From IMG/VR virus record IMGVR_UViG_3300037400_002699, positions 32,001 to 96,000 of that record: a stretch of 64,000 bases of DNA. One strand, given 5' to 3'. The stretch's first letter is position 1. Every line of letters starts with the position of its first letter. The DNA is from a virus. Its lineage: Duplodnaviria; Caudoviricetes. The notes beneath the pieces were generated by a model, which did not search any database, was not told where the DNA came from, and saw only the letters and a program-made list of their open reading frames with translations. Shown here in pieces: positions 11,393-44,549 of the stretch. The translations under genes were made by a program, and so were the position numbers.

Positions 11393-11779
11393 ATGAAAAA
11401 GGTAATTAGATTAACAGAAGGTGACCTTCACAAGATTGTGAAAGAGTCGGTTAAAAAGATATTGAAGGAGTATAATTTCAATGCTGTTCGCAGTGTTGAA
11501 ACAAAGCTGAAGATGGCTGCTGCAAAAGCTCAATATGGAAGATATAATGAGGCTGCTAGAATGATAGAGGAGGCATCGGAGCTTGTTGAACAGTACAACG
11601 ACAAACTAATCCAAGCATTAGGTGAAGACGAGTATGAGCAACTAGTTAAGATACTAGATGCAATGGTTCGCCCAATGCCCGTAGACGGAAAAATTCTATT
11701 GAGGCTCATAACCAAGGCATTGGCTATCATAAAGAATGGATATAAGACAGATGATAAAATTGAATTTGGTGAAATATAA
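11393..11779 (+). CDS. Putative internal head protein with head-targeting leader
   Basis: Begins MKKVIRLTEGDLHKIVKESVKKILKE; late-type motif upstream; helical payload. Confidence 0.75.
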   Translation: MKKVIRLTEGDLHKIVKESVKKILKEYNFNAVRSVETKLKMAAAKAQYGRYNEAARMIEEASELVEQYNDKLIQALGEDEYEQLVKILDAMVRPMPVDGKILLRLITKALAIIKNGYKTDDKIEFGEI

Positions 11780-21162: not shown

Positions 21163-24100
21163 ATGGGAAAGACTATTAGATTTAACGAGAATGGTTTAAT
21201 AGCAATTAAGGGCAAATTAAACGAAATTATGGTTGGCACTGATGGTGTCAGCCATAATGACGTTTATGGTAATGTTAAGCTATATCATGGCACTACCATC
21301 GATGCATTACTTATGATTATGGAAAGTGGTGTGATGTCAGCGAAGCGTGGAAAACAGCATGGGGAAACATATGGTGTTAATTGGTTCTCGTTGAAGAATG
21401 GTGATAATTTTAATAAGGGGGTATTATTTTCCATTGAAGTCCCAGGGGATGTCTTTAATGAGAGATTTAGGATGATGAATAGCTCTGAGGCAGTATCAAA
21501 GGATGATGACCTGGATATAACTGGTTTTAACCTAACTATTGAAAAGATATGCGGCTTATCAAGAGGGGCTATAAAAAATGCATATGACAGATATGTAAGT
21601 AATGGTGATAGATATCCATTGGAGAGCATTGGATATTTATTTGACCATTTTATTGAAAAAGTGCAAGACGATGACGTTTTGTTCCCTAGCATCTTATATC
21701 ATAATTGGGATAAATATTATCCAATGATTATGAAGAATATACTTGGAAATAATATTAATGAGAGTGTTGCAAAAGAGTTTGCTCCAGTTACTAGTATTGG
21801 TATGGAAAAAGGTGGCGGACCTGGGTTATATGCCCATAAAAAGGAAGTTGATGAAGAAATTGACTTTGATGATAATGGCATGTCAATCAATGACGATAAA
21901 ATACTTGGAAAATACAATCTCAAAGACTTGATACTGTCAAAAACTGGTAACTACGTAACTCTTAACAAAATAGTTGCTAATGAACTTGGTAAGGGGTGTG
22001 GTAGTAAATTTATGGAAGAACTTGCTAGAATTGCCGATAAAAATGGTTGGATTCTAGTTCTTACTCCAGACACTGCATTTGGCGGTTCTTCTGTTTCAAG
22101 GTTGAAGAATTTCTACAAACGATTTGGGTTTGTTCCAAATAAGGGGAAAAATACTGATTTTAACACCAGGGAATCTATGATAAGAAAACCATTAAACGAA
22201 AATAAGTATGATGATTTGTTTGATATACGTAATACAAATAAAAAGATATCAGACTGTGAAGAAGCTATTTCATATTTCAAAAATGTTTCTGATGAGATAA
22301 GGGAGAAAAAGGAGCACATATCTAGTAAATATGGGTGTAAAAGTATGTTTTTTATTGCTAGTATTAATCAAGGGGTAATACAGGCGAACCAGAATGATGT
22401 TAATGAATTTCATAGATTGAGTGACGAAAGGAGAGAAATAGAAGAAAAAATAAAAACTCTCAAAGATTTAATTAAAGAGATAGAGAAGGAAGAAAAAAGG
22501 GAAAAAGAAGCACAAAAGTATCGTTTAGAACAAGAAGAGAATGATAGAATATTTTCTTTAGTAATTGATGAATATGGAACAACAAATAGAATAGAAAATG
22601 CTGAGTATATACTTCCAGACGGAACTATGCTATATTCTGGAGGAGACCATAGAGGTATTGCTAGTATTTATGCTACGAATAATATTAGTATTTTTGATGA
22701 TAAATATCGCTACAATTATGTTGTAGATTTTTTGAATCGTGGCGCAATTAGGTGTCGTATGTTTGACGGGGATGGTATTCTAGATATGACAAGAGAGCCA
22801 ACAGGCAAGCAATACCAAGTTATTAATACATTTGCCCGTTATGCAAGTAATATTAATATAGATTTCACTAGCAATGAAGGAGAAACATTGAATTCAGTAT
22901 CATATTCCAATGCAACGCCACAGAGAATTACTAGCGATATATACAAGTACTATAACGAAGGTATTATACCGCAAGAAAATTCACGATTTGAATCAAAGAA
23001 AAGCAAAAGTATCGTAATATCAGAAAATAAACTTGACGTTATAAAAGAAAATATTGAATCAGAGGTTGAATCGTCAGAGGTTGACCTTTCTTCGTTCAAG
23101 AAACGTGATACACTACCACCAAAGATATGGAAGGATGAAGAGACACTTAACTCAAAGGTTAGATTGAAACTTCTTGACATTGCAGATGACTTCTGGAAGT
23201 TCGTTAACCTTACCTGGGTTGAACCAAAGGGAATTATTATAACTGGCTCTATATGCAACTTCAACTGGTCTAAGTTCTCAGATATAGACCTACACCTAGT
23301 GGTTGACTTTAATGAGATTGACAGCAAAACTGAATTTGTTAAACAATATCTCGATTCGAAGAAGAACGAGTGGAATGCAGAGCATGAGGGATTGAAGATA
23401 ATGGGATTCCCTGTTGAGTTGTATACACAGGATGTTAGCGATAATGTTGAGGCTGGTGGAATATATGACCTGGAGGAGAATGCGTGGATTAGGAAACCTA
23501 ACCCACACACCATTAAGAGCATAGGCCTTGAGAAGTTTGACATCAAGCGCAAGGCGGCTGAGATAATGACAATCATTGATGAAATGTACAAGACATTATC
23601 ATCGACTGATGACGGATATGAAGTAAGTAAGATTGGTGAGGACGCAAGCTACCTATGGGAAAAGGTAAAGAGCTTGAGAAAGAAGAGCCTCACGAAGCGC
23701 GGAGAAAACGGTGCGGGAAATATAGTGTACAAGGTACTTAGAAGAACTGGATACCTTGATAAACTATTTAAATTATTCTCAGCAACATATGATAAGTCAA
23801 ATTCAATAACTGAGGGCGTACAATATGACAGACTTCGCAATGACCAGGTGTTCAGATACCGTGTCATAGCTGATATGGTTAAAGATGGATATGTATTTCA
23901 TGGTACTGGTGAAGACGGAAACGGAGTTGAATGGGATGCTGTTGACCCATCTAAAATAAAGGGTGGCAGCAGAGGAACGTATGGTTATGGTATATACTTT
24001 TCAGACCATGCATATAAGTGTGAGAAATATGCTGGCTACAGTGGTGGGCATTTCATAATAGCAAACATAAAAGGTTTTAACCTCATTAATTTGAGAGACA

Positions 24101-25938
24101 AAATCGATAAGGAAAATAATATCTTTGTTGATAAACAAGTAGAATATCATCGTTTGTGCGATGCATTGGATAATGCTAGAAACAACAGAGAGTATGACAT
24201 GATATTAGCCAAGATAGATGAATATAAGGAAACTGTTGACAAGGAGTTGCTGTATGAAATCACTAGAATCATCGACAAATCTGATGGCGATATTACCTAT
24301 GGGTATCTTAATGAGAACATACCATTGTTGTGGTATATGGAAGGTGATAGCAGAAAAAGGGTTTCAAACTTATATCTTTCTTTAGGCATTGATGGATTTG
24401 CTGTAGACACTGAATTTGTGATATTCAATTTCGATAAACTTAATAACGCCATTGTTAAAAATAAGGAAGAATTGATTTTACAATATGTACAGAAGGCTGG
24501 ATTATCAGAATCTGCCAAGCAATACCTCAAGGTTCTGAAGGAGGAATTTGCAATGGATGGTTCGTCTGAAGGAAACCCTTACGAGAAGAGGTGGAAGGCA
24601 GAGCGTGATGCATTAAAAAACTTTGTTGCCAATTATGGTAAACTGATGCAGTCGAAGGAAGACAATAAGATGGGAAGACTGTACAAGGTCTATTATGACG
24701 AAACGATGTCAAATCTCATAGGATATAACTACTGCATCTGTGTGCAGTGGGATGAATTAACAATGAAACCTAAGAGTACAGTATATATTAGGGCGTTGGA
24801 TAAATTCACTCCATTTATAAGGAGAAATTTGCAATATGATGATAGAGGGTTAGATAACCAAAGAGGTACTTATGATGATAACAGATTTGTTAGAGAATCA
24901 GTAGATGAATTGAATTTATATCATTCTAGCTATAGTAGTTTCGATAAGTTCAATCATAGGAAATATCTAAGTTCTGGTGCTGGTTCTCAAACCTTTGGGT
25001 GGGGAACTTATCTTACAGATTCATATCCTATAGCAAAAGACTATGCTGAAAAGTTTATATTATTGAAATTTAATGAATTTATTGTTAAGGCAGAACCAGA
25101 GAAGTACATTGAAAATAATGGGTCATATGACGAAGAACTAATTAAAGAAGCTGCTAAAACATATAAACAAATAGTAAGATTCAATATTTCATTTAATCCA
25201 GATAAAAGATGGAGTAAAAATTCTTTTAATTCTTCATTAAAAACTGATGAAAATGCAACTGAAAACTATGACAGTGCTTTGAAGGAATACGAACAAGCAA
25301 TACAAATGGCAAAGTCTTGGGCTGAAAATGTTCTTAAAACAGAATTTAATCTTGAAGAATTCAAAGCAAATTATTCAAAAAATAGCATTCTAAAGTTTTC
25401 TAAACAAGAATATATTAATAACGTCAATAGACAAAATGCAATATATCAATTAGTAAAAGAAATGATAAATAATATATGGGATGATGCTGATAAGCACGTT
25501 AGAAAAGAATCCTATATATATGAAGTAGAGACACCAGATGATAATGGCTTAAATTATATTGATTTAAATAATGAAGTTCCAAATGAAATCATAGAAAGCA
25601 TAACTAGTACTCTTTCTAAAATATCAAGAAGATATGGAGGTGAATGGAAAACAATGAGTAAGTGGCGTGAATTCTTATCTTATTGTAATAACGCTCCCAA
25701 AGGAGAAGATATACATGATGAGCTTGGAAAACTAGTAGGAGTAGAAACTTCTATTGGTAATTATGATAAAGCCATATCATTATTCTTACTACAGTGCGGA
25801 ATTGATGGATTCAAATATAAAGCTGGAACTATTTATGGCTTACCAGATGGAGCAGATGAAAATTCTACAAATTATGTTATTTTTGATGCTAATAAAGTAA
25901 GAATCGTTAGTAAGAACCTATTTACTGATACTTTTTAG
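21163..25938 (+). CDS. Polyvalent multi-enzyme protein: ART-like x3, GNAT, Pol-beta nucleotidyltransferase
   Basis: LYHGTT; GKGCGSKF...FYKRFGF; TGSICNFNWSKFSDIDLH...VELY; VFHGT...GIYFS...EFVIF; LYHSS...GWGTYLT...GIDG...NYVIFD. Confidence 0.8.
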   Translation: MGKTIRFNENGLIAIKGKLNEIMVGTDGVSHNDVYGNVKLYHGTTIDALLMIMESGVMSAKRGKQHGETYGVNWFSLKNGDNFNKGVLFSIEVPGDVFNERFRMMNSSEAVSKDDDLDITGFNLTIEKICGLSRGAIKNAYDRYVSNGDRYPLESIGYLFDHFIEKVQDDDVLFPSILYHNWDKYYPMIMKNILGNNINESVAKEFAPVTSIGMEKGGGPGLYAHKKEVDEEIDFDDNGMSINDDKILGKYNLKDLILSKTGNYVTLNKIVANELGKGCGSKFMEELARIADKNGWILVLTPDTAFGGSSVSRLKNFYKRFGFVPNKGKNTDFNTRESMIRKPLNENKYDDLFDIRNTNKKISDCEEAISYFKNVSDEIREKKEHISSKYGCKSMFFIASINQGVIQANQNDVNEFHRLSDERREIEEKIKTLKDLIKEIEKEEKREKEAQKYRLEQEENDRIFSLVIDEYGTTNRIENAEYILPDGTMLYSGGDHRGIASIYATNNISIFDDKYRYNYVVDFLNRGAIRCRMFDGDGILDMTREPTGKQYQVINTFARYASNINIDFTSNEGETLNSVSYSNATPQRITSDIYKYYNEGIIPQENSRFESKKSKSIVISENKLDVIKENIESEVESSEVDLSSFKKRDTLPPKIWKDEETLNSKVRLKLLDIADDFWKFVNLTWVEPKGIIITGSICNFNWSKFSDIDLHLVVDFNEIDSKTEFVKQYLDSKKNEWNAEHEGLKIMGFPVELYTQDVSDNVEAGGIYDLEENAWIRKPNPHTIKSIGLEKFDIKRKAAEIMTIIDEMYKTLSSTDDGYEVSKIGEDASYLWEKVKSLRKKSLTKRGENGAGNIVYKVLRRTGYLDKLFKLFSATYDKSNSITEGVQYDRLRNDQVFRYRVIADMVKDGYVFHGTGEDGNGVEWDAVDPSKIKGGSRGTYGYGIYFSDHAYKCEKYAGYSGGHFIIANIKGFNLINLRDKIDKENNIFVDKQVEYHRLCDALDNARNNREYDMILAKIDEYKETVDKELLYEITRIIDKSDGDITYGYLNENIPLLWYMEGDSRKRVSNLYLSLGIDGFAVDTEFVIFNFDKLNNAIVKNKEELILQYVQKAGLSESAKQYLKVLKEEFAMDGSSEGNPYEKRWKAERDALKNFVANYGKLMQSKEDNKMGRLYKVYYDETMSNLIGYNYCICVQWDELTMKPKSTVYIRALDKFTPFIRRNLQYDDRGLDNQRGTYDDNRFVRESVDELNLYHSSYSSFDKFNHRKYLSSGAGSQTFGWGTYLTDSYPIAKDYAEKFILLKFNEFIVKAEPEKYIENNGSYDEELIKEAAKTYKQIVRFNISFNPDKRWSKNSFNSSLKTDENATENYDSALKEYEQAIQMAKSWAENVLKTEFNLEEFKANYSKNSILKFSKQEYINNVNRQNAIYQLVKEMINNIWDDADKHVRKESYIYEVETPDDNGLNYIDLNNEVPNEIIESITSTLSKISRRYGGEWKTMSKWREFLSYCNNAPKGEDIHDELGKLVGVETSIGNYDKAISLFLLQCGIDGFKYKAGTIYGLPDGADENSTNYVIFDANKVRIVSKNLFTDTF

Positions 25939-25990: not shown

Positions 25991-27763
25991 ATGAATAAAG
26001 TAAACACTAACGACACTCTTAACAGAATGAAGTCATTAATGAATTACGGACTTCAGACTGAGAGCAAGAAAGCACCATACAGTGCTGTTGAGTACCAGAA
26101 GGTTGGTGCTGACGGAAAGGTTTATGGTATTGTACGTGAAGGTACTAAGTATTACATAAAGACTGCTCCTAACAAGCAAAACCTTATTAAGGAAGACTTT
26201 GGCTATATTGGTGGTTTCAGAAACAGAAAAGAGAACGAGTACACCAGTTACGCTAATGCTCAGAAAAACTTTGACATGAAGATGATGTCTCTTAAGGAGG
26301 CTTATAATAACCCTACCTTCAATGTAGAGTCTTGGGACTTGAATAAGAAGGAATTGGTTGTTACTGAGGCTTCTGACAAGATGAAGGGTGAGATTCTTCG
26401 TGAGCGTCAGATTATGAAGAACGCTATGAACATCATGGAGAAGAAGACCACTAGCGAGTGTGGAATTTCTGCTGAAATCGCTGGAACACAGAAGGCTAAT
26501 ATGCCTAGTGGAAAGATTGAAACTGGTAATGCTCCAGCCCATAGTGGACCTTTTGAGGAGTGCGGTGATAAGGAACTTCCAAAGGAGATGAAAGAATCTG
26601 TTGTTAAAGAAGAAGAGGTTCTTGGTTGGAACAGAAAGAGTCCAGACTATATGGACAAGTCTCACGGAACTGAAATCGGTGACAGCGCACCATTCGACGA
26701 TGCTGAGGCACGTAACATTGATAACCAGGACAAGAAGGTAACAAAGACTGGTGAAATGAAGAACGGTGTTGTTGAGAATCACGGTGTTTCAATGCATGAC
26801 ACTGACAACCAGAACAAGCCTGGTGTAGGTGTTGGTGAAGGCCCTTCAGATGACAACAACAAACCATTCGATGCTGAGAAGGGAAAGCAGATTGACGAGG
26901 CTGTAGATGGTCTCGATACCCCTCCAATGGATGATGCAGAAGGTGGAGAAGAGCCAATGGGTGATGAGCCAATGGGTGACGAAGCTCCAATTGACGATGC
27001 TGGTGCTGAGGGTGAGCCAGTTGATACTGGAATCGGTGATGAGGCTGGACTTGACGATGAGGAAGGTCTTGACGATGTTGACCTTGATGATGAAGAAGGC
27101 CTTGACGATGATTTCGAGGATGAAGACCCATACGACGAAGAGCTTGAAAACCGTCTTGATTCACTTGAGGATAAGCTTGACATGATTATGAATAAGCTTG
27201 GCGTAGACGAGCCAGCAGTTGACGCTGACAACTACGAGGACGATGACCTATTCGGTGATGAGGACTTCGAGGATGATGACGAGTTTGGTGACGATGACTT
27301 TGAGGGTGAGGAAGGCTTCGGTGAGGATGACCTTGGTGGCACTCCAGAAGACGATGAGTTCGAGGATGAAGACGAGGATGAGTACCCAATGGAGTCAAGA
27401 CGTAGACGTGGCGTTCAGATTTTCGAGACAAGGGCATTCAAGAGAGCAATGCGTAGGAATAGACTTAATGAAGAGGGTATGACCCCATTCACTGATGCAG
27501 GTCGTGTTCCATCTGGAAATATGAACAAGCTCGATGACTTCGGAAAGCACCCAGCATATCAGAAGGTTGTTATGGATTTGCCACCAAAGGATATGAAGGA
27601 ATTCCCTGGCAACTATGACATGAACGACGATTCTGTTAAGAACGACACACCTTATGGTGAGAAGATTGGTGATGGTGCTCCATTCGACATTGACCCAGAG
27701 GCAATCGATAACGCAATTGCTGAAGCTTTTGACCGTTTAAAAAAAAAAGGTAATAGAGGATAA
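25991..27763 (+). CDS. Acidic prohead core/scaffold-like protein
   Basis: Very D/E-rich; repeated G-x-x-PF motifs; shares PFxAEKGKQ with the 39434 product; TATTTAT 25949-55 upstream. Confidence 0.7.
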   Translation: MNKVNTNDTLNRMKSLMNYGLQTESKKAPYSAVEYQKVGADGKVYGIVREGTKYYIKTAPNKQNLIKEDFGYIGGFRNRKENEYTSYANAQKNFDMKMMSLKEAYNNPTFNVESWDLNKKELVVTEASDKMKGEILRERQIMKNAMNIMEKKTTSECGISAEIAGTQKANMPSGKIETGNAPAHSGPFEECGDKELPKEMKESVVKEEEVLGWNRKSPDYMDKSHGTEIGDSAPFDDAEARNIDNQDKKVTKTGEMKNGVVENHGVSMHDTDNQNKPGVGVGEGPSDDNNKPFDAEKGKQIDEAVDGLDTPPMDDAEGGEEPMGDEPMGDEAPIDDAGAEGEPVDTGIGDEAGLDDEEGLDDVDLDDEEGLDDDFEDEDPYDEELENRLDSLEDKLDMIMNKLGVDEPAVDADNYEDDDLFGDEDFEDDDEFGDDDFEGEEGFGEDDLGGTPEDDEFEDEDEDEYPMESRRRRGVQIFETRAFKRAMRRNRLNEEGMTPFTDAGRVPSGNMNKLDDFGKHPAYQKVVMDLPPKDMKEFPGNYDMNDDSVKNDTPYGEKIGDGAPFDIDPEAIDNAIAEAFDRLKKKGNRG

Positions 27764-28389: not shown

Positions 28390-28887
28390 ATGAAAGTATA
28401 CGTTAAGAAAGATAAGGTATTGAAGCTTCTTGGAGAAGGTAAGGTGTTCTCAAAGAAGGATTTAATTTTAAGAGAATTTGGTGGAGACACTAATAGCAGT
28501 GATGACGACACTGTTTCAATAAACCTATCACCAGATAATACCAATAAAAACCCATCACAGTTATCACAAAACGCAATAACTGCAAGAAATACAGTAACAG
28601 CACCTGGTAAAAAAATTGTCGGAAATGTTCCTGTTGAAGATGTCAATGGTGTTACTGCTCCAACATTATCACAGAATGACCCTGGTAACGATATGACAAT
28701 TGACTCATCAGATAATACCAGCACAGGCATAAAGAATGCAGCAGTTGCTGCTTCTAAGGCTAGGGTTGGTTCTGTTACAGTTCCAATTAAGGATTCTGTA
28801 AAGTCAAAGAAGGTTATGGATGAAATGAGAGCCAATTCAATACCATTTACAAAGTCAGAGTTAACAAAGTTTCTAAAGAGTCTTTAA
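28390..28887 (+). CDS. Hypothetical late protein
   Basis: TATTTAT 28368-74 upstream; TAATG coupling to the next gene. Confidence 0.7.
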   Translation: MKVYVKKDKVLKLLGEGKVFSKKDLILREFGGDTNSSDDDTVSINLSPDNTNKNPSQLSQNAITARNTVTAPGKKIVGNVPVEDVNGVTAPTLSQNDPGNDMTIDSSDNTSTGIKNAAVAASKARVGSVTVPIKDSVKSKKVMDEMRANSIPFTKSELTKFLKSL

Positions 28888-31800
28888 TGAAAAAGATATA
28901 CATCAACGAAAGTCAAATTAATAAGGAACTACTGCTTCCAAAGTTCCTCTTTGATGCAGTGGTTAAACATGAGACCTCCCTTGGGGATAATCCAGCATTC
29001 CCAGAGGAGGATGACTACCCGTTTGACTATACTGTTCTGAAAGAGGGGTTCAAGGATGTATGCGAACAGATGAAGGATGTTGGTATACCTATAACTAGCA
29101 CTGATGATATGGTATCAGAACTTGGTGCTATGGTCAATATGGCGAAGGAGCTGGAAAAGCCTGTAAGGGATTCACTTACAAAGATTTGCGAGAATGCAAT
29201 CAACAGGCTGTTTGCAATACCAGAGGGTGCTGTAAACATAAGATGCAGGCTTGTTGACAAGGTTACATATGGTAGCTCAATAGGAGTTACTCCAGAGATT
29301 TCCACCGACAGAAAGTTTAGATTTAAGGATATAAAGGACTTTGGTTTATCAAAGGCTGCAATTGCCAAGAGAAGACTTATTAATTCCCTTATTATGGGTG
29401 CTTCGGACTTTTACATGTCAATGATTACGTTGTACCAGGAAGACATTAATAAGCTTAATCCAGAACTTCTCGGACTGTATGACAAAATAATAACGCTTAA
29501 CAGGTATCTTACATTTGTCCTTGATGAAGAACTAAGTGATGAGAAGCCAAAGCAGGGGTCATTTGTGGAAGTACATGTTGGAAGTAACGGTAAGAAGAAT
29601 ACAATAGATGCACAGGGTGTCATATTCCCATTGCTATTCCATGACTTAATTAAGGGATTCTTCGAGCTATTTTCAGTTCATGGTTTGCCTCTTGATGGCG
29701 AGAAGGCTAAATATATAATCGGAAAGTCTGATTTCCTTCTTGCTGAGCCTTGGGATATGAGGTTTGGAACAAAGTTATGGCAGCTTATCTTTGATAGGCT
29801 GGAACTTGCTGAGGATACAAATATTGTACCTTATGTTTTTATGGAACTCGTTAAGCTGCCAACTGAAGAATTTAACCCAGTTATGCAGGAGTTGTTTATG
29901 CAGACTGAGAAAGGTGATGAAATCATTGGTAAGCTTATTGAGAAGTCAAGGTATAACGATGGATACCAGAAGTTCCAGAATAGGATTAATGCCAGAAATG
30001 TAGATAGGTCGATGATTGCTGATAGCTATTTCACTGCTTCTGAACTAGATGGATACGATATTGATGGTGAGGAAGATGGAGACGTTATCCAAGAGGATAT
30101 AATCACAGAATCCCAGGAATCTAAGTCAATATCTGCCGCAAAGAAACTTGTAATGCAGAAATTTGGATATGATGAGCAAGAAGCGGACGAATTTGTTAGA
30201 ATAAAGTTAAGAAACGACATACCATCTCTAAGAGATGTAGCCGCTAAGTTTACACTTGGTGTGACAAGAATGTTTTGTGACTATGAGTTGGAAGACGCTA
30301 ATACGATAAATAGGCTAAACAGAACACTAAAAATTGTTGGTTCTGAAGCGCATATTAATGAATATGATAGAAATCTCAACGGACTGTCAGCAGATGAACT
30401 CATAGACAGATTCTCACAGGCAATGACAGATAATGTTAATGCTGAGAGGGAACAAGATTCTAAGTTTATACCTGTTAAGCCCTCTGAATATACTATAGTA
30501 AAAATAGATTCATATAAGCAAGCCACTAAATATGGTAAATATACAGACTGGTGTATCACACATTATAAAAATAATTATGATAACTATACATGTAACGGTA
30601 TAAACCAGGTGTATTTTTGTTTAAAACCTGGTTTTAATAAACTATTAAGGAAAAAAGGAAGTAACTATCCACTCGACGAATATGGTTTATCAATGATTTC
30701 TGTTATCGTGGACGAGGACGGAGGACTTGCTTATTGTACATGTCGTTGGAATCACGGTGATGAGAATGATGGCTCATGTGATGACAGTGTTATGGACTAT
30801 AACGGCATTAGAGAACTGATGCAGGTTAGGTTCTTTGACACCTTTAAACCAAATAATAAGTGGAAGGAGTTTATTAGTTCGACGATGGAACGCCTTGCAC
30901 GAGGAGAAAACCCAGCAGACGTATTTGATTATTATGCTTATACAAATCTAGGATTTAGTGTAGTAGGTTTCGAAGAACTGGAGAGATATAATGTTATTGA
31001 TAAAGAAAACAATTTCATATCTGATAAATGGTATGTTTCCATTAAGCTTAACAATATTGGTGTTTTCATTGTTGAAGATAGTTCATATAAAAAGAGTTAT
31101 ATGGATTTAAATGGTAATGTAATATCAGAGAAATATAACGATATTGAAATTGACACTTATGACGGTTTGGCTATTGTTAGGAGAGATAGAAAATATAATT
31201 GGATTAAGCCGAATGGTGAAAGATTAAATAATGATTGGTATAATTGGGTCGGTAATTTTAAATACGGCCCAGCTCAAGTAGGTTCTGAAAAAGGAAAGAA
31301 TTTTGTTAACACCAACGGTGAATTAATGTGTAAAAGATGGTACGATGATATACACAGCATGACACTGAATAAAGATGGCACAATGGTAACGTTAGGTAAT
31401 AAAACAAATTACATTGATGCTAATGGTAATGAAATATCCAGTGAGTGGTTTGATGGAGGTTTCTATCGTTTTAACTATGGCTTTGTTGGTGTGTATAAAA
31501 ATTATGGTAACAACGTTACCCGTGCTAATTTTATTGACACTAAAGGAAATCTTTTATGTGATAAATGGTTTAAATCAATTATTAAAGATTTTAATAGAAA
31601 TGGAATTGCTGAGGTTACTGATGAACATGAAATGTTATATACAATAAACAGACGTGGAAAAATCACTAACACTGGAAAATATTATGGTGATTGGAAAGAA
31701 TATTCTGCTGACCCAGAATGTGTTAAAAAAGAAGTTAACAAGTTTGATACCCTTTTATATTACTTGATGACAGATGGGCAATGTAATTTATCATGTGCAG

Positions 31801-31901
31801 ACGTATCTTTCCATGAATGGCTTATACAAAATTATCCAAGTTTGAATTATTCTGTTTATTTTACAAATAAGTATTTTACAGAATTTTATAAAAAGAGATA
31901 G
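28887..31901 (+). CDS. Multidomain putative internal head protein with C-terminal WG-like repeats
   Basis: Leader MKKIYINESQINKE; acidic linker ending IITES; WCIT-containing domain; repeated N(F/Y)IDxxGxxxxxxW(F/Y). Confidence 0.7.
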   Translation: MKKIYINESQINKELLLPKFLFDAVVKHETSLGDNPAFPEEDDYPFDYTVLKEGFKDVCEQMKDVGIPITSTDDMVSELGAMVNMAKELEKPVRDSLTKICENAINRLFAIPEGAVNIRCRLVDKVTYGSSIGVTPEISTDRKFRFKDIKDFGLSKAAIAKRRLINSLIMGASDFYMSMITLYQEDINKLNPELLGLYDKIITLNRYLTFVLDEELSDEKPKQGSFVEVHVGSNGKKNTIDAQGVIFPLLFHDLIKGFFELFSVHGLPLDGEKAKYIIGKSDFLLAEPWDMRFGTKLWQLIFDRLELAEDTNIVPYVFMELVKLPTEEFNPVMQELFMQTEKGDEIIGKLIEKSRYNDGYQKFQNRINARNVDRSMIADSYFTASELDGYDIDGEEDGDVIQEDIITESQESKSISAAKKLVMQKFGYDEQEADEFVRIKLRNDIPSLRDVAAKFTLGVTRMFCDYELEDANTINRLNRTLKIVGSEAHINEYDRNLNGLSADELIDRFSQAMTDNVNAEREQDSKFIPVKPSEYTIVKIDSYKQATKYGKYTDWCITHYKNNYDNYTCNGINQVYFCLKPGFNKLLRKKGSNYPLDEYGLSMISVIVDEDGGLAYCTCRWNHGDENDGSCDDSVMDYNGIRELMQVRFFDTFKPNNKWKEFISSTMERLARGENPADVFDYYAYTNLGFSVVGFEELERYNVIDKENNFISDKWYVSIKLNNIGVFIVEDSSYKKSYMDLNGNVISEKYNDIEIDTYDGLAIVRRDRKYNWIKPNGERLNNDWYNWVGNFKYGPAQVGSEKGKNFVNTNGELMCKRWYDDIHSMTLNKDGTMVTLGNKTNYIDANGNEISSEWFDGGFYRFNYGFVGVYKNYGNNVTRANFIDTKGNLLCDKWFKSIIKDFNRNGIAEVTDEHEMLYTINRRGKITNTGKYYGDWKEYSADPECVKKEVNKFDTLLYYLMTDGQCNLSCADVSFHEWLIQNYPSLNYSVYFTNKYFTEFYKKR

Positions 31902-31962: not shown

Positions 31963-33843
31963 ATGATATACGATAGACACGAAATGGCCGTTGAATATGC
32001 GACCTGCTATGCGGATAAATCCAGGATTACTTTCATTGAGAAGTATTTCAGTACCTTCAACGCCATGAAGGGAAAGAAGACGCAGTTTCATTGTTTCCCA
32101 AGACAGAAGGCTTTCCTAAAAGCTCTGGCTGAGAACAGGAACGTTGTAGCTGTTAAGCCAAGACAGTGCGGTATTACCACCCTGTCAAGTGCTTGGGCAG
32201 CAGCGCAGTGTGCGTTTGCCCCTAAGGATGCTCCAGAAACAATACTGTGTATCGCTAATAAACTTGAGCAGGCGCAGGAAATCATTATAAAGGTTAGGGA
32301 CTTCCTGGAACAAGTCCCAAGATGGTATTGGGGTGATGAGTACTTTTCACCAGACCCTAATTCAGAGAAAAACATTAAATCTATATTCGAGAAGGACGCT
32401 AAGGGTGAGTTGAAATTGTTCAACAAATGCAGGGTTATTGCTCGTGCATCAGGTCCTAATGCAGCTCGTGGTATCTCAGCTGTATCAGTACTTATTCTTG
32501 ACGAGGCTGCGTTTATTGAGGAGGGCGTGGCAGCATTTACCACAGCTGCTGCTACAATGGCTTCTAACCCTAATTCTAAGACTGTCATGGTGTCAACACC
32601 TAACGGTAAGGATGAGTTGTACTACAACACCTATAGACAGGCTCTGAGTCACGAAAATAACTTTGTGGCAGTACAGTTTCGTTGGTATCAAGACCCACGT
32701 TTCAATAAGTACCTTGTATGGAAGAAGAAGAATGAGGAGACTGGTGAATGGATGTTTGACCAAGACCCTATAGTTGACGAGGAAGGTGGAGTCAAGTACG
32801 ACGAGGAAAGATGGGCTAGACTTGAGCACGACGGATGGACACCAGACGCTCCTTGGTATGATGAAATGTGCAAACAGTTCAACAACGACTCGATGAAGAT
32901 TGCACAGGAGCTTGACGTGTCGTTCATGGGTTCTTCTGATAACGTTATCGCACCAGAGTACATTGAAATGCAGGATAAGCTCAATGTAAGAGAGCCACTT
33001 GATGATTTTAAAGACCCGCTTGTAGAGGAGACTTGGTTCTGGAAGCAGCCGATAGAGGGGCACAGGTACATATGCGCAGTTGACCCTTCAAGGGGTACAG
33101 CAGCCGATAGAACAGCCATAGAGATTATCGATATGGATGGTAGGGATGACAACGGAATGCCTATCATTGAACAGGTTGCTGAATACGTTGGAAAGAGGCT
33201 TGGTGACGATATAGGTGCTATTGCTTATCAGTATGCTACAATGTATAACGACGCTTTCGTTGTCGTAGATGCTACTGGAGGACAGGGTGATGCCTGTATC
33301 ATTACGATGCTTCAGATGGGCTACAAGAACATGTACTACGAGGATATGAATCAGAAGACGTATATGTTGCAGAGAGCTACGAAGGTCTATGACAGCTATA
33401 CAGATAAGCTTCCTGGTTTCCACTTCCAGGGTAACAGATATCCAGTATTGGCTAACTTCGCTGGATTGGTTAGAAACAATGAGTTTAAGATTAGGTCTGC
33501 AAGGGTTATTAATGAGCTTGACACCTGGATATTCAAGGGTGACAATGCGAGGATGGACCACATGGATGGTGCTCATGATGATACGATTACGTCTCTTGCT
33601 ATGGGACTGTTCGTCATGCAGTACTCATTCAACAGGCTGCTTAGCACCGTTAAGAAGGATAAGGCAATACTTAGTTCATACATGATGACAAATTCATTCC
33701 ATGTAAGTAAACCTAAGATGGAAAACGGAAAGAGTATAGCACCAGGTATAGGTCTGCCATTCTATAAGCAAGATAAGATGAAGAATAATTATGGCAGCAT
33801 ACAATATGGGAACTATATGTGGATTTTTGGTGGCATGAAATAA
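31963..33843 (+). CDS. terL: Terminase large subunit (T4 gp17-like)
   Basis: KPRQCGITT Walker A variant; LILDEAAFI Walker B; STPNG coupling motif; VDPSRG and HDD nuclease residues. Confidence 0.92.
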   Translation: MIYDRHEMAVEYATCYADKSRITFIEKYFSTFNAMKGKKTQFHCFPRQKAFLKALAENRNVVAVKPRQCGITTLSSAWAAAQCAFAPKDAPETILCIANKLEQAQEIIIKVRDFLEQVPRWYWGDEYFSPDPNSEKNIKSIFEKDAKGELKLFNKCRVIARASGPNAARGISAVSVLILDEAAFIEEGVAAFTTAAATMASNPNSKTVMVSTPNGKDELYYNTYRQALSHENNFVAVQFRWYQDPRFNKYLVWKKKNEETGEWMFDQDPIVDEEGGVKYDEERWARLEHDGWTPDAPWYDEMCKQFNNDSMKIAQELDVSFMGSSDNVIAPEYIEMQDKLNVREPLDDFKDPLVEETWFWKQPIEGHRYICAVDPSRGTAADRTAIEIIDMDGRDDNGMPIIEQVAEYVGKRLGDDIGAIAYQYATMYNDAFVVVDATGGQGDACIITMLQMGYKNMYYEDMNQKTYMLQRATKVYDSYTDKLPGFHFQGNRYPVLANFAGLVRNNEFKIRSARVINELDTWIFKGDNARMDHMDGAHDDTITSLAMGLFVMQYSFNRLLSTVKKDKAILSSYMMTNSFHVSKPKMENGKSIAPGIGLPFYKQDKMKNNYGSIQYGNYMWIFGGMK

Positions 33844-36967: not shown

Positions 36968-37333
36968 ATGGCAAAGAAATTAATAAGGTTAACAGAAAGT
37001 GACCTCCATAGGATTGTAAAGGAATCTGTGAAAAGAGTTATAAGATTGACCGAGGCTCAAGAATACCCACCAGAATTTATTGAATGGTTAAATAGTCCAG
37101 AACAAGGTGGTTATTATTGGAATTTTAATGAAAAACCAGAATGGCAGAAACGCAATATTTACCAAATGTATCAACAAGAAATGGCTGAAAAGAATTTTAC
37201 AGACGGCATGAGGGTTGGTAATAGACAAGGATTTAGAAATAAAGATACTGGCGAGATAGAATGGCATGGTGAAAGAAGCATAAATGGCTGGCCAACAGAA
37301 GGACCAACAAGGTGGACACCGCCAACTAAATAA
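36968..37333 (+). CDS. Putative internal head protein with head-targeting leader
   Basis: MAKKLIRLTESDLHRIVKESVKRVIRLTE followed by a unique payload. Confidence 0.8.
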   Translation: MAKKLIRLTESDLHRIVKESVKRVIRLTEAQEYPPEFIEWLNSPEQGGYYWNFNEKPEWQKRNIYQMYQQEMAEKNFTDGMRVGNRQGFRNKDTGEIEWHGERSINGWPTEGPTRWTPPTK

Positions 37334-37363
37334 ATAATAAATGATAAATAAATTTATACAATT

Positions 37364-37681
37364 ATGGCAAAGAAATTAATTAGATTAACAGAGAATGACC
37401 TTCACAGAATAGTGAAGGAGTCTGTTGGTAAGATATTGAAAGAAATAGATTTGAATCCAAACCCAAGTCAGTCTTCAAAGGAAGACGTTGATTATGGAAT
37501 ACCGCCATATACTGTTGTTGTGGGAGGCATAATGGAAGGGGAACCTTTTGATGATATTTACGATGCAATAGAATATGCTGAACAATGGGACAATTATATA
37601 ACAAATTCTGGCGAACACAAAAACATCACAATATATGATGAAAACGATGAAGACGTTTGGAGTATTAGGCATTTTGGATAA
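37364..37681 (+). CDS. Putative internal head protein with head-targeting leader; acidic payload
   Basis: MAKKLIRLTENDLHRIVKESVGKILKE followed by an unrelated D/E-rich payload. Confidence 0.8.
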   Translation: MAKKLIRLTENDLHRIVKESVGKILKEIDLNPNPSQSSKEDVDYGIPPYTVVVGGIMEGEPFDDIYDAIEYAEQWDNYITNSGEHKNITIYDENDEDVWSIRHFG

Positions 37682-38297: not shown

Positions 38298-38531
38298 ATG
38301 AGCAAGATTGTAAATATATCAGAAGAGAAATTCAGAAAGGCACTTAGAAGTATTGTAAAGGAACAAGAAGACGTATATAACAATTATGAAGTGTTTAATG
38401 ACCAGGAAAATGCCATACCTAATCCAAATGACAGAACATTAGATAATCACGAGGAGAGTACCGCTGGGGTGAATAATATAGACCAAACTGTGTACGAGCC
38501 AGATGGTAACAAGGATATTGAAAATCCATAA
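38298..38531 (+). CDS. Small acidic protein with head-targeting leader
   Basis: MSKIVNISEEKFRKALRSIVKE; TATTTAT 38274-80 upstream. Confidence 0.65.
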   Translation: MSKIVNISEEKFRKALRSIVKEQEDVYNNYEVFNDQENAIPNPNDRTLDNHEESTAGVNNIDQTVYEPDGNKDIENP

Positions 38532-38567: not shown

Positions 38568-39260
38568 TTATGAATTTAATATACTTTTAATCTTGCTTAT
38601 TTTCTCATTGACGATAGACTTTGTATCCTTTGTCGTGTTACTTTCAACATACTGCTGTAGGTCTTCAGCTTGTCCTACCCAAGCACCTGGTGTTGACGGG
38701 TCTGATACAACGTCCCAGCATATAAGTTCGAAATCATCTCCTACTATATACTGTCCTAATTTCTGCTCTACTGAGCCTACACCTCTTGAAGATACGCCAA
38801 TCTTTATTCCATTAAGAAGAAGGTTAGCCATTTGGTCTCCACGTGTTGAGACTATTCCATACTTTCTGAAACCGTATGATGTATTAATCATGCACTTTCC
38901 GACAAGTGTCCTACCTTCCCAGTGAAGCTCTGTAATGTTGATGGCTATTCTATCAAGGTCTATAGTTGACTCTGCTGGGTGGTTAAGTTCACCTATTGCA
39001 TTGCTTTCCTGTATTTTTTTCTGGTATATTTCAACTTGTCTCTTTAACACGTTTTCTGGATATATTCTGCCGTTAGCATTTTTGATACCGAACTTCTGGA
39101 ATACTGCGTCAACAATGAATGGGTGTGGCACATGCCATTCCCCGTCTATACCCTCAGTTATCTTCTGAGGGTTCTTGAGAAACATGTATCCGTCCTTCTC
39201 TATTAGAATACCATGTCCCGTCTTACCTTCCTTTATTATTTCAAGTTCTTTTTTCATCAC
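38568..39260 (-). CDS. Prohead protease (T4 gp21-like)
   Basis: NANGRIYP, GELNHP (His), GVSSRGVGS (Ser) and DVVSDPSTPGA. Confidence 0.93.
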   Translation of the reverse strand: MMKKELEIIKEGKTGHGILIEKDGYMFLKNPQKITEGIDGEWHVPHPFIVDAVFQKFGIKNANGRIYPENVLKRQVEIYQKKIQESNAIGELNHPAESTIDLDRIAINITELHWEGRTLVGKCMINTSYGFRKYGIVSTRGDQMANLLLNGIKIGVSSRGVGSVEQKLGQYIVGDDFELICWDVVSDPSTPGAWVGQAEDLQQYVESNTTKDTKSIVNEKISKIKSILNS

Positions 39261-41107: not shown

Positions 41108-43144
41108 ATGAAAGAATTTTTATCTAGTGGCGTAGTTGGTAATATTGAGTACAACGCCCAGAAACAGATACGTGAGAGCATTCAGAACCGTTGGGACCAG
41201 CTCGGATTTACTGAGGGTCTTCCAGAGGGTATCAAGGAGAATGTTGCTACGTTGTATGAGAATGAGGCTAAGCACTTGATTTATGAGGCTACAGCTTCTG
41301 ACAATAGCGGTTCATTCGAGACTGTGGTATTCCCTATCATCCGTAGGGTATTCAGCAGACTTCTTGCTAATGACATCGTTTCAGTACAGGCTATGAACCT
41401 TCCTGTAGGTAAGTTGTTCTTCATCCTCCCTGTTACTTCAGAGAGAGAGTGGGAGCTTCCAGCAGAGATGACTGGCGACACTGAGCCTGGCGATATTGTA
41501 GACGGAACAACTGGTCGTCACCTTGGTCTTATGGGTTATGACAGAGTTAACCGTAACAAGGAAGGACGTGTTGAGCCACGTTACTATCTCCCAGACGAGA
41601 CAATCAATGAGCTTCAGAATGCATGGTACATCCCAGTTCTTAGCGACGAGGATACCTATGATACATTCGACGCTGCTAAGGAAGCTGCTATTGCAGCTGG
41701 TCTTAACCCAACAGCTATTCGTAGAGTAGGACCAGAGGTTACTCAGTACTTCCAGAAGAGTCTTTACGACTTGTTCTACAATGACTTCTTGTATGACAAC
41801 TCAAAGGGTAAGGTTACTATTAAGGTTGGTGAGGCTATCCCAGTATTCTTGACCCCTGGTGGTGTTCGCCCATTCGGTGCTGACAACTTGAATCAGTACT
41901 TCCAGAGTGGATTTGACGGAACTATCCGTAACGTCATCCTTGAGATTGATGGTTTCTCTTCATTCAACGCTTCTAAGTTGACTGGTCCTGACGGAAACGA
42001 AATGGACACTGAGGAGTTCCTTGCTTCATTGAAGGTTATCACACAGAAGGCTATTGCAGCTCAGAATGCTCCTGGTTCAGAGGACGTTAAGACTTCTGCT
42101 TTCAGAAAGTTTGAGTCTGTTCCATTCAGAGTAGTTACTCAGAAGTATGGTAAGGGTATCGTAGAGTACGGTGCTGCTTGCGACGCAGAGGGTAAGATGT
42201 ATATCGAGCTTGACCTTGCTAAGCCAGTTATCCAGCAGGCTGGAACAATCGATGGTTACATCGGTGTTGCTGCTTCAGAGCTTGACGCTGCAATTGTTAA
42301 GAGTGGAAACACTATTGACTACGAGGCAACTAAGGAGAATATCAAGTCTTTGTTCAAGATTGCTTGGGCACAGTATGATTCTCTTGAGCTTGAGACTGAA
42401 ATCGGTGAGGTTTCATTCAAGTTGGATTCAGTAACTGTATCAGTTGTAGAGAGAAAGCTTCGTGCTACCTGGTCTCCAGAGCTTGCACAGGACGTTTCTG
42501 CATTCCACAACATCGACGCAGAGGCTGAGTTGACAGCTATCCTTTCAGAGCAGATTGCTGCTGAGATTGACCGTGAGATTCTCCGTGACCTTAGAAAGGG
42601 AGCGCCTTGGCAGGCACGTTGGGATGTCAATGGTTGGAGGAGAATGGCTGCATTCTCTACAAACTACACCCAGAAGGACTGGAATCAAGAGTTGATGACT
42701 AAGATTAACCAGATTTCTGCACAGATTCACAAGTCTACACTTCGTGGTGGTGCTAACTTCATCGTTGTATCTTCAGAGATTTCTGCATTGTTCGATAACT
42801 TGGAGTTCTTCCACGTATCTGACGCTTCAGCAGAGAGCGACCAGTACAACATGGGTATCGAGAAGATTGGAGCACTTAACGGACGTTACACCGTATATCG
42901 TGACCCATATTCTCCACACTGGTCAATCATCATTGGTCACAAGGGTAAGTCACTTCTTGACACTGGTTACATCTATGCACCATATGTGCCAATGCAGTTG
43001 ACTCCTACAATGTACAACCCATTCAACTTCGCACCCGTAAAGGGGATAATGACGAGGTACGCTAAAAAGATGGTAAATAATCGTTACTATGGACATGTTC
43101 GTGTAGACGGTCTCGTACATTGGAGCATCAACGAATTCAGATAA
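41108..43144 (+). CDS. Major capsid protein (T4 gp23-like)
   Basis: FPIIRRVF...DIVSVQAMNLPVG; RKLRATWSPELAQD...DAEAEL..ILSEQIAAEIDRE; YIYAPYVP...GIMTRYA. Confidence 0.95.
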   Translation: MKEFLSSGVVGNIEYNAQKQIRESIQNRWDQLGFTEGLPEGIKENVATLYENEAKHLIYEATASDNSGSFETVVFPIIRRVFSRLLANDIVSVQAMNLPVGKLFFILPVTSEREWELPAEMTGDTEPGDIVDGTTGRHLGLMGYDRVNRNKEGRVEPRYYLPDETINELQNAWYIPVLSDEDTYDTFDAAKEAAIAAGLNPTAIRRVGPEVTQYFQKSLYDLFYNDFLYDNSKGKVTIKVGEAIPVFLTPGGVRPFGADNLNQYFQSGFDGTIRNVILEIDGFSSFNASKLTGPDGNEMDTEEFLASLKVITQKAIAAQNAPGSEDVKTSAFRKFESVPFRVVTQKYGKGIVEYGAACDAEGKMYIELDLAKPVIQQAGTIDGYIGVAASELDAAIVKSGNTIDYEATKENIKSLFKIAWAQYDSLELETEIGEVSFKLDSVTVSVVERKLRATWSPELAQDVSAFHNIDAEAELTAILSEQIAAEIDREILRDLRKGAPWQARWDVNGWRRMAAFSTNYTQKDWNQELMTKINQISAQIHKSTLRGGANFIVVSSEISALFDNLEFFHVSDASAESDQYNMGIEKIGALNGRYTVYRDPYSPHWSIIIGHKGKSLLDTGYIYAPYVPMQLTPTMYNPFNFAPVKGIMTRYAKKMVNNRYYGHVRVDGLVHWSINEFR

Positions 43145-43773: not shown

Positions 43774-44022
43774 ATGATTGAACCGAAATTTAATCCAGGT
43801 GATTATATTATAAACAGGACATCTGGAGATATGGCGATAGTTGACAAGGTTACTTCGAAGGGGTATTATCGTTTCAAGGCGTTTTATGGTAGCATGTTTA
43901 ATGAATTCAAAGATGTGAAGGATAAAAATTTTGATTTGCAGATTAATTATCAGAAGTTTTATGACCTGTGTAATGACGGTGAGAAGAAAAAACTCGATGA
44001 GTTAATAAAAGAGAAGGGATGA
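43774..44022 (+). CDS. Hypothetical protein (SH3-like N-terminus)
   Basis: PKFNPGDYI start; ATGA overlap with the next gene. Confidence 0.6.
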   Translation: MIEPKFNPGDYIINRTSGDMAIVDKVTSKGYYRFKAFYGSMFNEFKDVKDKNFDLQINYQKFYDLCNDGEKKKLDELIKEKG

Positions 44023-44549
44023 AAATAATAAGATTAACAGAGGGTGATTTACATAATATTGTTACAGAGGTTGTTGCGAACTTATGCGAATCATCAACCA
44101 GTGAAGTTGTCTTTCATTGTGGCGATGAACTAAACGAAAGGAGATTCAAGGATGTGATATGGTTTAGTTCTGAACCTATTGGTTATTTCGGTTACCCACA
44201 TAGATATGAGGTGACGATGAACAACCCACTTGTGATAAACGCATTTGGTGCTGGCTGGAATGACAAGTTATGGCGGGAGTGTTGTAAACCAACTGGTGAG
44301 CCAAAATGCCCTCCAGATGACCCAAGTCTTGTATCAAGAGCACCTGCCTTTATATGGAAAATGGTACAAGAGTCAGATGATGAGATAGAATATGGAGACA
44401 TACCTTACATAGTTAAGCATATGCGTAATGAGGGTAAGGTAAATTATGATGGGGTTATAATAAAAGAAATTTACGAAACGCCAACTTGTAATATTAAGAC
44501 TGATGACTATGTTGTTTTCAGCATGAAACAAATAAAACTAGTAAAATAA
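44019..44549 (+). CDS. ADP-ribosyltransferase-like protein with head-targeting leader
   Basis: MKIIRLTEGDLHNIVTEVVANLCE; then VFHCG...IWFS...NPLVI...YDGVII...DDYVVF. Confidence 0.65.
   Translation: MKIIRLTEGDLHNIVTEVVANLCESSTSEVVFHCGDELNERRFKDVIWFSSEPIGYFGYPHRYEVTMNNPLVINAFGAGWNDKLWRECCKPTGEPKCPPDDPSLVSRAPAFIWKMVQESDDEIEYGDIPYIVKHMRNEGKVNYDGVIIKEIYETPTCNIKTDDYVVFSMKQIKLVK

Follow-up and report, generated by a model that had tools for sequence, protein, structure and literature searches.

P0001 is a 1591-aa, 183-kDa protein encoded by an intact single open reading frame (ORF) at 21163-25938 (+) of a 64,000-nucleotide stretch of tailed-phage DNA (IMG/VR record IMGVR_UViG_3300037400_002699, positions 32,001 to 96,000). 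This whole stretch is the window, and all coordinates given here are window positions unless marked aa. It lies within a 134-kb contig of a phage of the gut/rumen group with a T4-type head. P0001 qualifies as a polyvalent protein as Iyer et al. 2017 (PMC5512222) used the term, and it is a mosaic: leader-plus-payload cassettes are concatenated in it, and each joint is a full or vestigial copy of the N-terminal leader. Behind the first leader, eight payloads (M1 to M8) follow in series: an ADP-ribosyltransferase (ART)-fold domain, a GNAT-like domain, a coiled coil, the M4 domain, a Pol-beta-type nucleotidyltransferase (NTase), an ART-PolyVal-like domain, the small M7 domain and an ART-PolyVal domain. 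The leaders end in the motif of a T4-type head protease, and from this we take it as probable that the chain enters the capsid and is cut apart inside it. We lean, by a modest measure, toward a mechanism of leader-guided head loading followed by cleavage of the joints in trans by the phage's Peptidase_S77 (S77) prohead protease, with the fragments entering the host along with the DNA.

In phage T4, capsid-targeting leaders of 10-20 residues load the internal proteins and Alt into the prohead core, and the leaders are removed by gp21, which cuts Alt at ITE-6 and LTE-619 (PMC5694885, PMC3012670). Polyvalent proteins with ART, GNAT and NTase content were described by Iyer et al. 2017, who already drew the analogy to viral polyproteins and ascribed the release of domains to embedded peptidases, namely a zincin-like MPTase and, at the C-termini of some, an assemblin-like peptidase (PMC5512222). 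No peptidase was found in P0001 or in the scanned relatives by Pfam, PHROG and NCBIfam scans or among fold matches, and the NCBIfam scan of P0001 gave no match of any kind.

The N-terminal leader of P0001 (21163-21264 (+), aa 1-34) follows the pattern MGK[TS][IV]x[IF]xExxLxx[IL]K..LNE, with a candidate cut after KLNE (aa 18-21, nt 21214-21225); it was modelled as a helix over aa 9-23 with disorder after it. Module presence and leaders were counted over 120 relatives of P0001. On most of these the leader is conserved irrespective of the module that comes next, in the general form M-x-K-K/T-[IV]-x-[ILF]-x-E-x-x-L-x-x-[IL]-K-E ending in hydrophobic-x-Glu. A hidden Markov model (HMM) of N-terminal leaders alone matched aa 614-630 of P0001 (i-E 0.014 among relatives and 0.068 among all ORFs of the genome), which confirms the second, internal tag that an earlier note on this DNA had picked out from the sequence alone. 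This copy (23002-23049 (+), aa 614-629) reads SKSIVISENKLDVIKE↓N, where the arrow, here as below, marks the joint or candidate cut, and the tag precedes the NTase whatever module stands upstream. The same HMM located internal copies at the module starts of 15 relatives (i-E <=0.01), and leader HMMs match standalone N-termini as well as internal joints.

The two C-terminal modules exist elsewhere as standalone proteins, and these carry the leader. In standalone relatives of M8 (275-378 aa) it stands immediately before the first ART strand, (L)YH[GS]S, as in MAKVIRLTENQFGEMM↓AYHGS, MAKKVTITENRLIGIIRDVINE↓MNLYHAS and MKRIVLTESQIKYIIGESVDE↓LRAYHGS (the last of which ends ...IIGESVDE↓LRAYHGS), and the joint FVRESVDE↓LNLYHSS in P0001 is therefore read as the tail of such a leader. 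Standalone forms of M7 (100-130 aa) likewise begin with a leader, for example MGKIIKLTESQFDKLLGEE↓VVADG, which would explain KQYLKVLKEE↓FAMDG in P0001. The remnant before M7 is disordered and yet strongly conserved, which speaks for a function. A second leader type, the near-identical MxKK[LIV]IRLTExDLHxIVKE↓SV, heads seven small ORFs of the genome, several of them within the head block, and standalone ART-PolyVal relatives of M8 are headed by either type, the IRLTE type included.

The same joints are where the family is broken and rejoined. A search of a 5.8-billion-protein set returned 198 relatives, 875-2785 aa in length and encoded on contigs as long as 420 kb; these are mosaics that have pieces in common at 45-94% identity in differing order. 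The ends of their matches cluster on P0001 at aa 34, ~228, 341-347, 482 and 627, with further clusters at aa 884 (65 ends of high-scoring segment pairs), 1106-1116 (85 starts) and 1232-1244 (109 ends). When the family was compared all against all, [ILVM]xE↓[SGA] lay within 2 residues in 11.0% of 1065 distinct breakpoint contexts versus 2.2% of random positions (z ~20), and no enrichment was seen when E at P1 was replaced in the test by D, K or Q. The prediction of the earlier note that relatives would shuffle their domains at xE junctions thus held in about 200 relatives, the breakpoints falling on hydrophobic-x-Glu sites.

The residues at the joints were examined at three junction classes. 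The C-end of the NTase is followed by I/L-x-E in 122/122 distinct fused contexts, with 8 or more kinds of module coming next, and hydrophobic-x-E is found there in 1/21 proteins that terminate with the NTase; the 100% Glu at this junction is true by construction, because the site was located by motif search, and it is the comparison of 122/122 with 1/21 that forms an independent count. These contexts span lineages down to ~40% identity. Across the three classes P3 is I, L, V or M in 84-99% and P2 is free; Glu occupies P1 in 86-89% of cases in the two classes scored at an aligned position (before the NTase and before the M7 core). Such a pattern, with P3 hydrophobic, P2 free and P1 Glu, matches what a protease site would look like.

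Breakpoints of this kind could also be accounted for at the level of DNA, the joints being recombination linkers for the swapping of cassettes and the encoded peptide having no role. Module exchange is indeed extensive, and the GC content at third codon positions (GC3) is strongly module-dependent, at 0.44 in the NTase, 0.42 in M7, 0.21 in the coiled coil and 0.17 in M8, a ~2.5-fold spread that agrees with a mosaic origin of P0001. These GC3 values suggest that the accessory modules were recently acquired and that the NTase and M7 may be the old core; the minimal form of the family is leader-NTase-M7, of 411 aa (relatives L036-L043). The conserved stretch is, however, only 4-6 codons long at several joints, too short for efficient homologous recombination, and the conservation is at the amino-acid level, Glu-specific, with a free P2 and flat D, K and Q controls. 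We give recombination linkers as the explanation very little credence, and they would in any case be compatible with cleavage at the joints.

The placement, and not the number, of the xE motifs in P0001 is non-random. Of seven strict motifs, [ILVMF]xE[SGA], four lie on module borders, at E200, E884, E1116 and E1245. In the structure models, for which aa 1-625 and aa 621-1591 were predicted separately with alignments of relatives as input, every junction motif is within or at the edge of a segment with a low predicted local distance difference test (pLDDT) score, the linkers that hold the joints being aa 19-35, 200-280, 345-356, 607-648, 880-888, 1114-1141 and 1222-1294. Junction motifs buried in folded domains, which the earlier note had named as an outcome that would speak against its proposal, were thus not encountered.

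Several observations weigh against cleavage at the joints. The seven strict motifs compare with 6.4 expected from composition, which is chance level, and an overall enrichment was accordingly rejected. Three of them, E54, E1329 and E1478, are inside folded parts, so that the motif alone is insufficient to define a cut, and several joints have N, E, I or L at P1', unlike the small residues at others. Neither the breakpoint counts nor the junction counts are phylogenetically independent, and a T4-like specificity of the window's prohead protease is assumed from T4. An HMM of the genome's IRLTE-type leaders found no match on the N-termini of P0001 or its relatives, and the link between the two leader types consequently rests on the shared pattern, on the standalone ART relatives and on an N-terminal enrichment of weak matches. 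The Glu at a joint could, moreover, belong to the upstream module as its final residue, or else to the downstream leader, and could then be inherited from the fusion and not selected for cutting.

These points bear most directly on the alternative that P0001 is packaged and delivered essentially whole, with at most the N-terminal leader removed, and that the joints and internal leaders are unused scars of fusion. The motifs are no more numerous than chance predicts, each joint can be traced to the terminus or leader of a gene that once stood alone, the vRNAP of phage N4, a large virion protein, is packaged unprocessed (PMC5512222), and related giant phages differ in the processing of homologous head proteins (PMC5694885). 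Yet Glu is kept in every one of the fused NTase contexts, in lineages as far apart as stated above; a hydrophobic P3, free P2 and Glu at P1 make the pattern of a site and not that of a decaying scar; the disordered leader remnants are highly conserved; and if the chain lies in the prohead core together with an active gp21-type protease, one would expect its exposed consensus sites to be cleaved. We regard delivery of the whole chain as unlikely, though as a serious contender, and continue to prefer cleavage at the joints.

The enzyme proposed to make these cuts is encoded at 38568-39260 (-). It passes the Pfam threshold for Peptidase_S77 (PF03420, E 1.2e-24, 87.4 bits versus a cut-off of 27), matches phrog_207 (E 1.4e-43) and is 34% identical to gp21 of a T4-like Citrobacter phage; the protease to which the earlier note had pointed at this position is therefore a homolog of T4 gp21, a prohead maturation protease. 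The window also carries genes for TerL, the portal and a gp23-type major capsid protein (41108-43144 (+), phrog_138, E 4e-65). Residues 62-109 of the capsid protein correspond in alignment to residues 78-128 of T4-type gp23, a stretch that begins shortly after the known gp23 cut, and LYE51↓N and IYE60↓A (nt 41258-41287) are its candidate maturation sites. At 678 aa this protein is longer than the ~520 aa of T4-like phages, the extra portion, ~aa 110-400, coming after the conserved N-terminal segment.

The gene for P0001 keeps company with head genes well beyond the window. In 80 related viral loci the polyvalent gene is always in the head block, directly upstream of a gene for a 590-aa protein (o590) and then one for a 1004-aa protein (o1004), after which come terminase-portal or protease-scaffold-capsid. 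It may be asked whether this position is incidental and P0001 a cytoplasmic multi-enzyme made during infection, with a leader that serves translation or start-region control, folding, localisation or partner binding; the NTase module by itself does occur among replication and early genes in cyanophages. The synteny with terminase, portal, protease, scaffold and capsid genes is nevertheless conserved across the 80 loci, the fact that internal copies of the leader are in frame favours a function of the encoded peptide, and the leader ends in the motif of a T4-type protease that the phage itself encodes. In addition, ART-PolyVal is typical of proteins predicted to be injected (PMC5512222). A non-virion role for P0001 thus seems to us improbable.

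A chain loaded into the head and cut there would proceed as follows. The leader would act like a T4 capsid-targeting sequence, docking the protein to the assembling prohead core, and would be removed by the S77 protease. Each joint has its hydrophobic-x-Glu in a disordered linker, at E21, E200, E231 or E346, E629, E884, E1116/E1127 and E1245/E1249, and during prohead maturation the protease would cut these joints to leave about seven polypeptides of 13-40 kDa within the head. Carried into the host along with the DNA, the fragments would act on host targets through ADP-ribosylation, nucleotidylation and perhaps acetylation. What the analysis shows is the mosaic build of P0001, the grammar of its leaders and joints, the leader on standalone relatives, the type of protease and the setting among head genes; that the protein is packaged, cleaved and ejected, and what its modules catalyse and on which targets, we infer.

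The earlier note had counted about seven separate host-modifying enzymes. The ORF and every motif it listed were located where it had placed them, and the domain list is real; the enzyme count is overstated, because no catalytic fold is recognisable in the coiled coil, M4 or M7 and the evidence for a GNAT domain is weak. Searched as a whole, P0001 gives weak database matches (Pfam GNAT E 0.02, ART-PolyVal/DUF3990 E 0.02-0.03, NTase E 0.08), with one strong exception, phrog_36119 over aa 644-881 (E 5e-46).

M1 (21265-21762 (+), aa 35-200) is an ART-fold domain with the motif LYHGT at aa 40-44, and it ends in NINE↓S at E200 (NINES, aa 197-201). Foldseek matched its aa 35-135 to Tpt1/KptA, DarT and PARP (best E 6e-3, prob 1.0), and the same region compared by VIA gave TreTu at Z 8.0 (root-mean-square deviation, rmsd, 2.5 over 87 aligned residues) and Tpt1 at Z 7.2-7.3. 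With hhalign no relation of M1 to M6 or M8 was found, nor any among M4, M5 and M7.

Between M1 and M2 lies a conserved linear motif without an assigned function (21763-21855 (+), aa 201-231), a degenerate APEVDEYE[IL]GxE..NPPVGGNYxHV that is modelled at pLDDT <50; in the alignment A2 its G213 and G221 are invariant and E205, E215 and H225 are conserved at >=90%. In nearly all family members a ~25-aa form of it, (N)EAxPEVDEYE[IL]GxE..NPPVGGNYxHVxE (21769-21855, aa 203-231 in P0001), stands between the leader and the first module. It is seen in relatives L031, L036, L041, L045 and L055 and extends to distant lineages. Its conservation exceeds that of the leader, even though disorder is predicted for it. 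This segment, aa 203-231, may be a docking motif.

M2 (21856-22200 (+), aa 232-346) is GNAT-like and ends in PLNE↓N (PLNE, aa 343-346). It matches phrog_10691 (E 7e-19) and, below the cut-off, Pfam Acetyltransf_7 (E 0.02), and it contains GKGCGSKF, which resembles motif A. Foldseek returned GNAT matches, puromycin and spermidine acetyltransferases, at prob 0.7-0.84; with only 115 aa in the module and a model of low confidence (pLDDT <60), the assignment is weak. M3 (22201-22593 (+), aa 347-477) is a long helical hairpin or coiled coil, with helices at aa 355-389 and 410-471 (pLDDT 80-92), and its structure matches are generic coiled coils only.

M4 (22594-23001 (+), aa 478-613) is an alpha/beta domain without an assigned function, modelled at pLDDT 80-93, characterised by YILPDG...DH (YILPDG at aa 482-487) and carried by 82/120 relatives. 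It had no match in PDB by sequence or profile or in Pfam and none usable in the ESM Atlas, its fold not having been searched as an isolated domain; the wide VIA comparison of the 625-residue model was dominated by coiled-coil matches and is uninformative for M4.

M5 (23050-23814 (+), aa 630-884), the Pol-beta-type NTase that accounts for the phrog_36119 match, ends in NSITE↓G (SITEG, aa 881-885). Its Foldseek matches are CdnE, ANT(9), AadA and KNTase at E 5e-3 to 0.4 (CdnE and ANT(9) at 5e-3), and among viral structures (BFVD) NTases match at E 3e-15. The catalytic G-S...D-x-D, which fits the G-[SG]...D-x-[DE] motif of the Pol-beta superfamily, is present (GS...DID, aa ~694-710) and is invariant in 30 relatives at aa 695, 696, 707 and 709 (G75, S76, D87 and D89 of the alignment), while Pfam matches of M5 are only weak. 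Homologs occur as standalone genes in Lak phages, cyanophages and others. In Prevotella phage Lak-B5 (L002, 1429-2214) the homolog has an in-frame stop under table 11 and the tblastn match runs beyond it, which is what stop-codon reassignment in this phage would lead one to expect.

M6 (23815-24510 (+), aa 885-1116) is a second ART domain, ART-PolyVal-like, with YVFHGT...YGYGIYFS (YVFHGT at aa ~909-914) and the end GLSE↓S (LSES, aa 1114-1117). Pfam ART-PolyVal matches aa 621-1591 in two stretches, aa 911-1023 and 1250-1373, with a total E of 1.4e-4 that is below the cut-off, and M6 and M8 are weakly related by hhalign (E 7e-4). The segment that follows (24511-24897 (+)) consists of the leader remnant SAKQYLKVLKE↓E (aa 1117-1127, with LKEE at aa 1124-1127) and M7 (aa 1128-1245), a small, conserved module without an assigned function that ends in FVRE↓S (VRES, aa 1243-1246). 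M7 is present in 101/120 relatives, nearly always at the extreme C-terminus, so that it forms the usual end of the family, and the sequence hydrophobic-x-E-E↓VVADGN at its start is invariant. A profile search of 1.84 billion representatives found it in only 119 clusters, again nearly always very C-terminal. M7 had no PDB match by sequence or profile and no usable match in the ESM Atlas, its fold likewise not having been searched as an isolated domain.

The last segment (24898-25935 (+), aa 1246-1591) comprises the leader tail SVDE↓L and M8, an ART-PolyVal domain with a helical C-terminal part and LYHSS at aa ~1252. Its standalone homologs have 30-53% identity over 97-100% of M8, those with E down to 7e-56 having 30-38% over 97-99%, and in BFVD M8 matches a 'PolyVal ADP-ribosyltransferase' at E 2.5e-13. 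Elsewhere among the structure searches with P0001, a Foldseek match to the cyanophage A4 pre-ejectosome (9k3a_B, E 0.03) was too poor, at rmsd 26, and was discarded.

P0001 is a bona fide polyvalent protein because it joins ART-fold, NTase and ART-PolyVal-type modules and a weak GNAT-like module, that is, at least two disparate domains on one chain. The chain is phage-encoded and in a virion or late-gene context, as seen in the head genes of the window and in the synteny of the 80 loci. The signature domain ART-PolyVal (PF18760) is reached by transitive homology, since the score of P0001 is 23.1 bits, where the cut-off is 31.2, and only the standalone M8 homologs pass, at 31.9-33.8 bits. Like other polyvalent proteins, it combines disparate conflict domains (ART-PolyVal, GNAT, Pol-beta NTase), adjoins virion genes, is highly mosaic and is predicted to be injected with the DNA (PMC5512222). 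It differs from them in that its joints carry the site of a separate T4-type prohead protease and copies of a portable leader.

Some of the other proteins encoded near P0001 have leaders or shared modules as well. The 590-aa protein (25991-27763), whose gene is directly downstream of the polyvalent gene in almost all 80 loci, has a long Asp/Glu-rich core and no family match, and may be a head-core or scaffold-like component. The 1004-aa protein (28887-31901 (+)) is a second modular, leader-bearing protein that looks like a second cargo chain, with the N-terminus MKKIYINE↓S and a joint at aa 405-408, IITE↓SQESKSISAAKKL (IITE↓SQESKSI). Its second half, an ESQESKSI..AK.L module with WG-like repeats, is met again within polyvalent relatives. 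In L033, L060-L064 and L080 the polyvalent ORF has taken up parts of the 1004-aa protein by fusion. Two small ORFs of 121 and 105 aa in the head-gene block (36968-37681 (+), individually 36968-37333 and 37364-37681) begin with MAKKLIRLTExDLHRIVKE↓SV, and further ORFs with IRLTE-type or degenerate leaders are at 38298-38531, 44019-44549 and 11393-11779, with more outside the window. The payloads of these small ORFs are mutually unrelated, and several lie between the portal and capsid genes, like the internal-protein genes of T4.

A close parallel is the capsid-targeted cargo of T4 (IPI-III and Alt). Here as there, a T4-type major capsid protein and a gp21-type (Peptidase_S77) protease are encoded by the phage, and unrelated payloads stand behind a short leader that ends in (I/L/V)-x-Glu. 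An ADP-ribosyltransferase is among the payloads in both, and the ITE and LTE cuts of Alt are of the same tripeptide type as NSITE↓G in P0001 (PMC5694885, PMC3012670). T4 differs in having separate genes with one payload each, whereas up to eight are concatenated here, and the leader of the P0001 group is longer, ~20-30 aa, and has no sequence relationship to MKTYQEFIAE. The ART modules of P0001 are on the ART-PolyVal/H-Y-E side, outside the Alt clade. When whole P0001 was compared by tblastn with 50,697 phage records, the NTase (aa 645-889) was the only part to match, and no T4-type Alt was among the matches; Pfam points to ART-PolyVal/DUF3990, and membership of P0001 in the Alt/ModA/ModB family was rejected. 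The likeness to Alt would be functional only, in that P0001 may work like it.

In phages phiKZ, 201phi2-1 and SPN3US many head-internal inner-body and ejection proteins are cut at x-x-Glu by a gp21-related protease (gp175/gp245), paralogs have conserved N-terminal propeptides, and several sites are possible per substrate. Their sites are small-x-Glu (S/A/G-x-E), their payloads are unrelated to those of P0001 and the cuts mostly remove propeptides; serial release of enzymes from one chain is not known there. With the polyproteins of RNA viruses the proposed logic has in common a single translation product with protease sites in the linkers between domains. There is no homology to these, and what would be cut here is cargo and not replication machinery, in the prohead and by the capsid maturation protease. 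The polyprotein concept is thus not new for polyvalent proteins (PMC5512222); what would be new is the cutting in trans, by a capsid protease, at joints derived from a leader. The literature searched describes no polyvalent family without a detected peptidase whose joints copy a leader resembling T4 capsid-targeting sequences and ending in the motif of a separate prohead protease, nor the same leader on single-payload relatives.

Polyvalent proteins are widespread and have hardly been studied by experiment, and the only published proposal for the release of their domains is self-cleavage by embedded peptidases. The P0001 locus offers a concrete alternative for T4-type heads, in which the cut sites and the fragments of ~13-40 kDa are explicit. 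The leader gives a sequence rule by which candidate injected effectors (ARTs, the NTase, M4 and M7) can be listed in uncultured phages of the gut and rumen. Whether this extends to a general 'tag-and-cut' grammar in T4-like jumbo phages of gut/rumen Bacteroidota, with a portable leader as both loading tag and protease site, is a suggestion that we advance tentatively, our confidence falling a little short of even. On this view a polyvalent protein would be a string of tagged cargo genes whose products the capsid maturation protease parts in trans. If such a grammar holds, the injected effector set of uncultured phages would be readable from sequence alone, and the leader could be used to load foreign proteins into these capsids.

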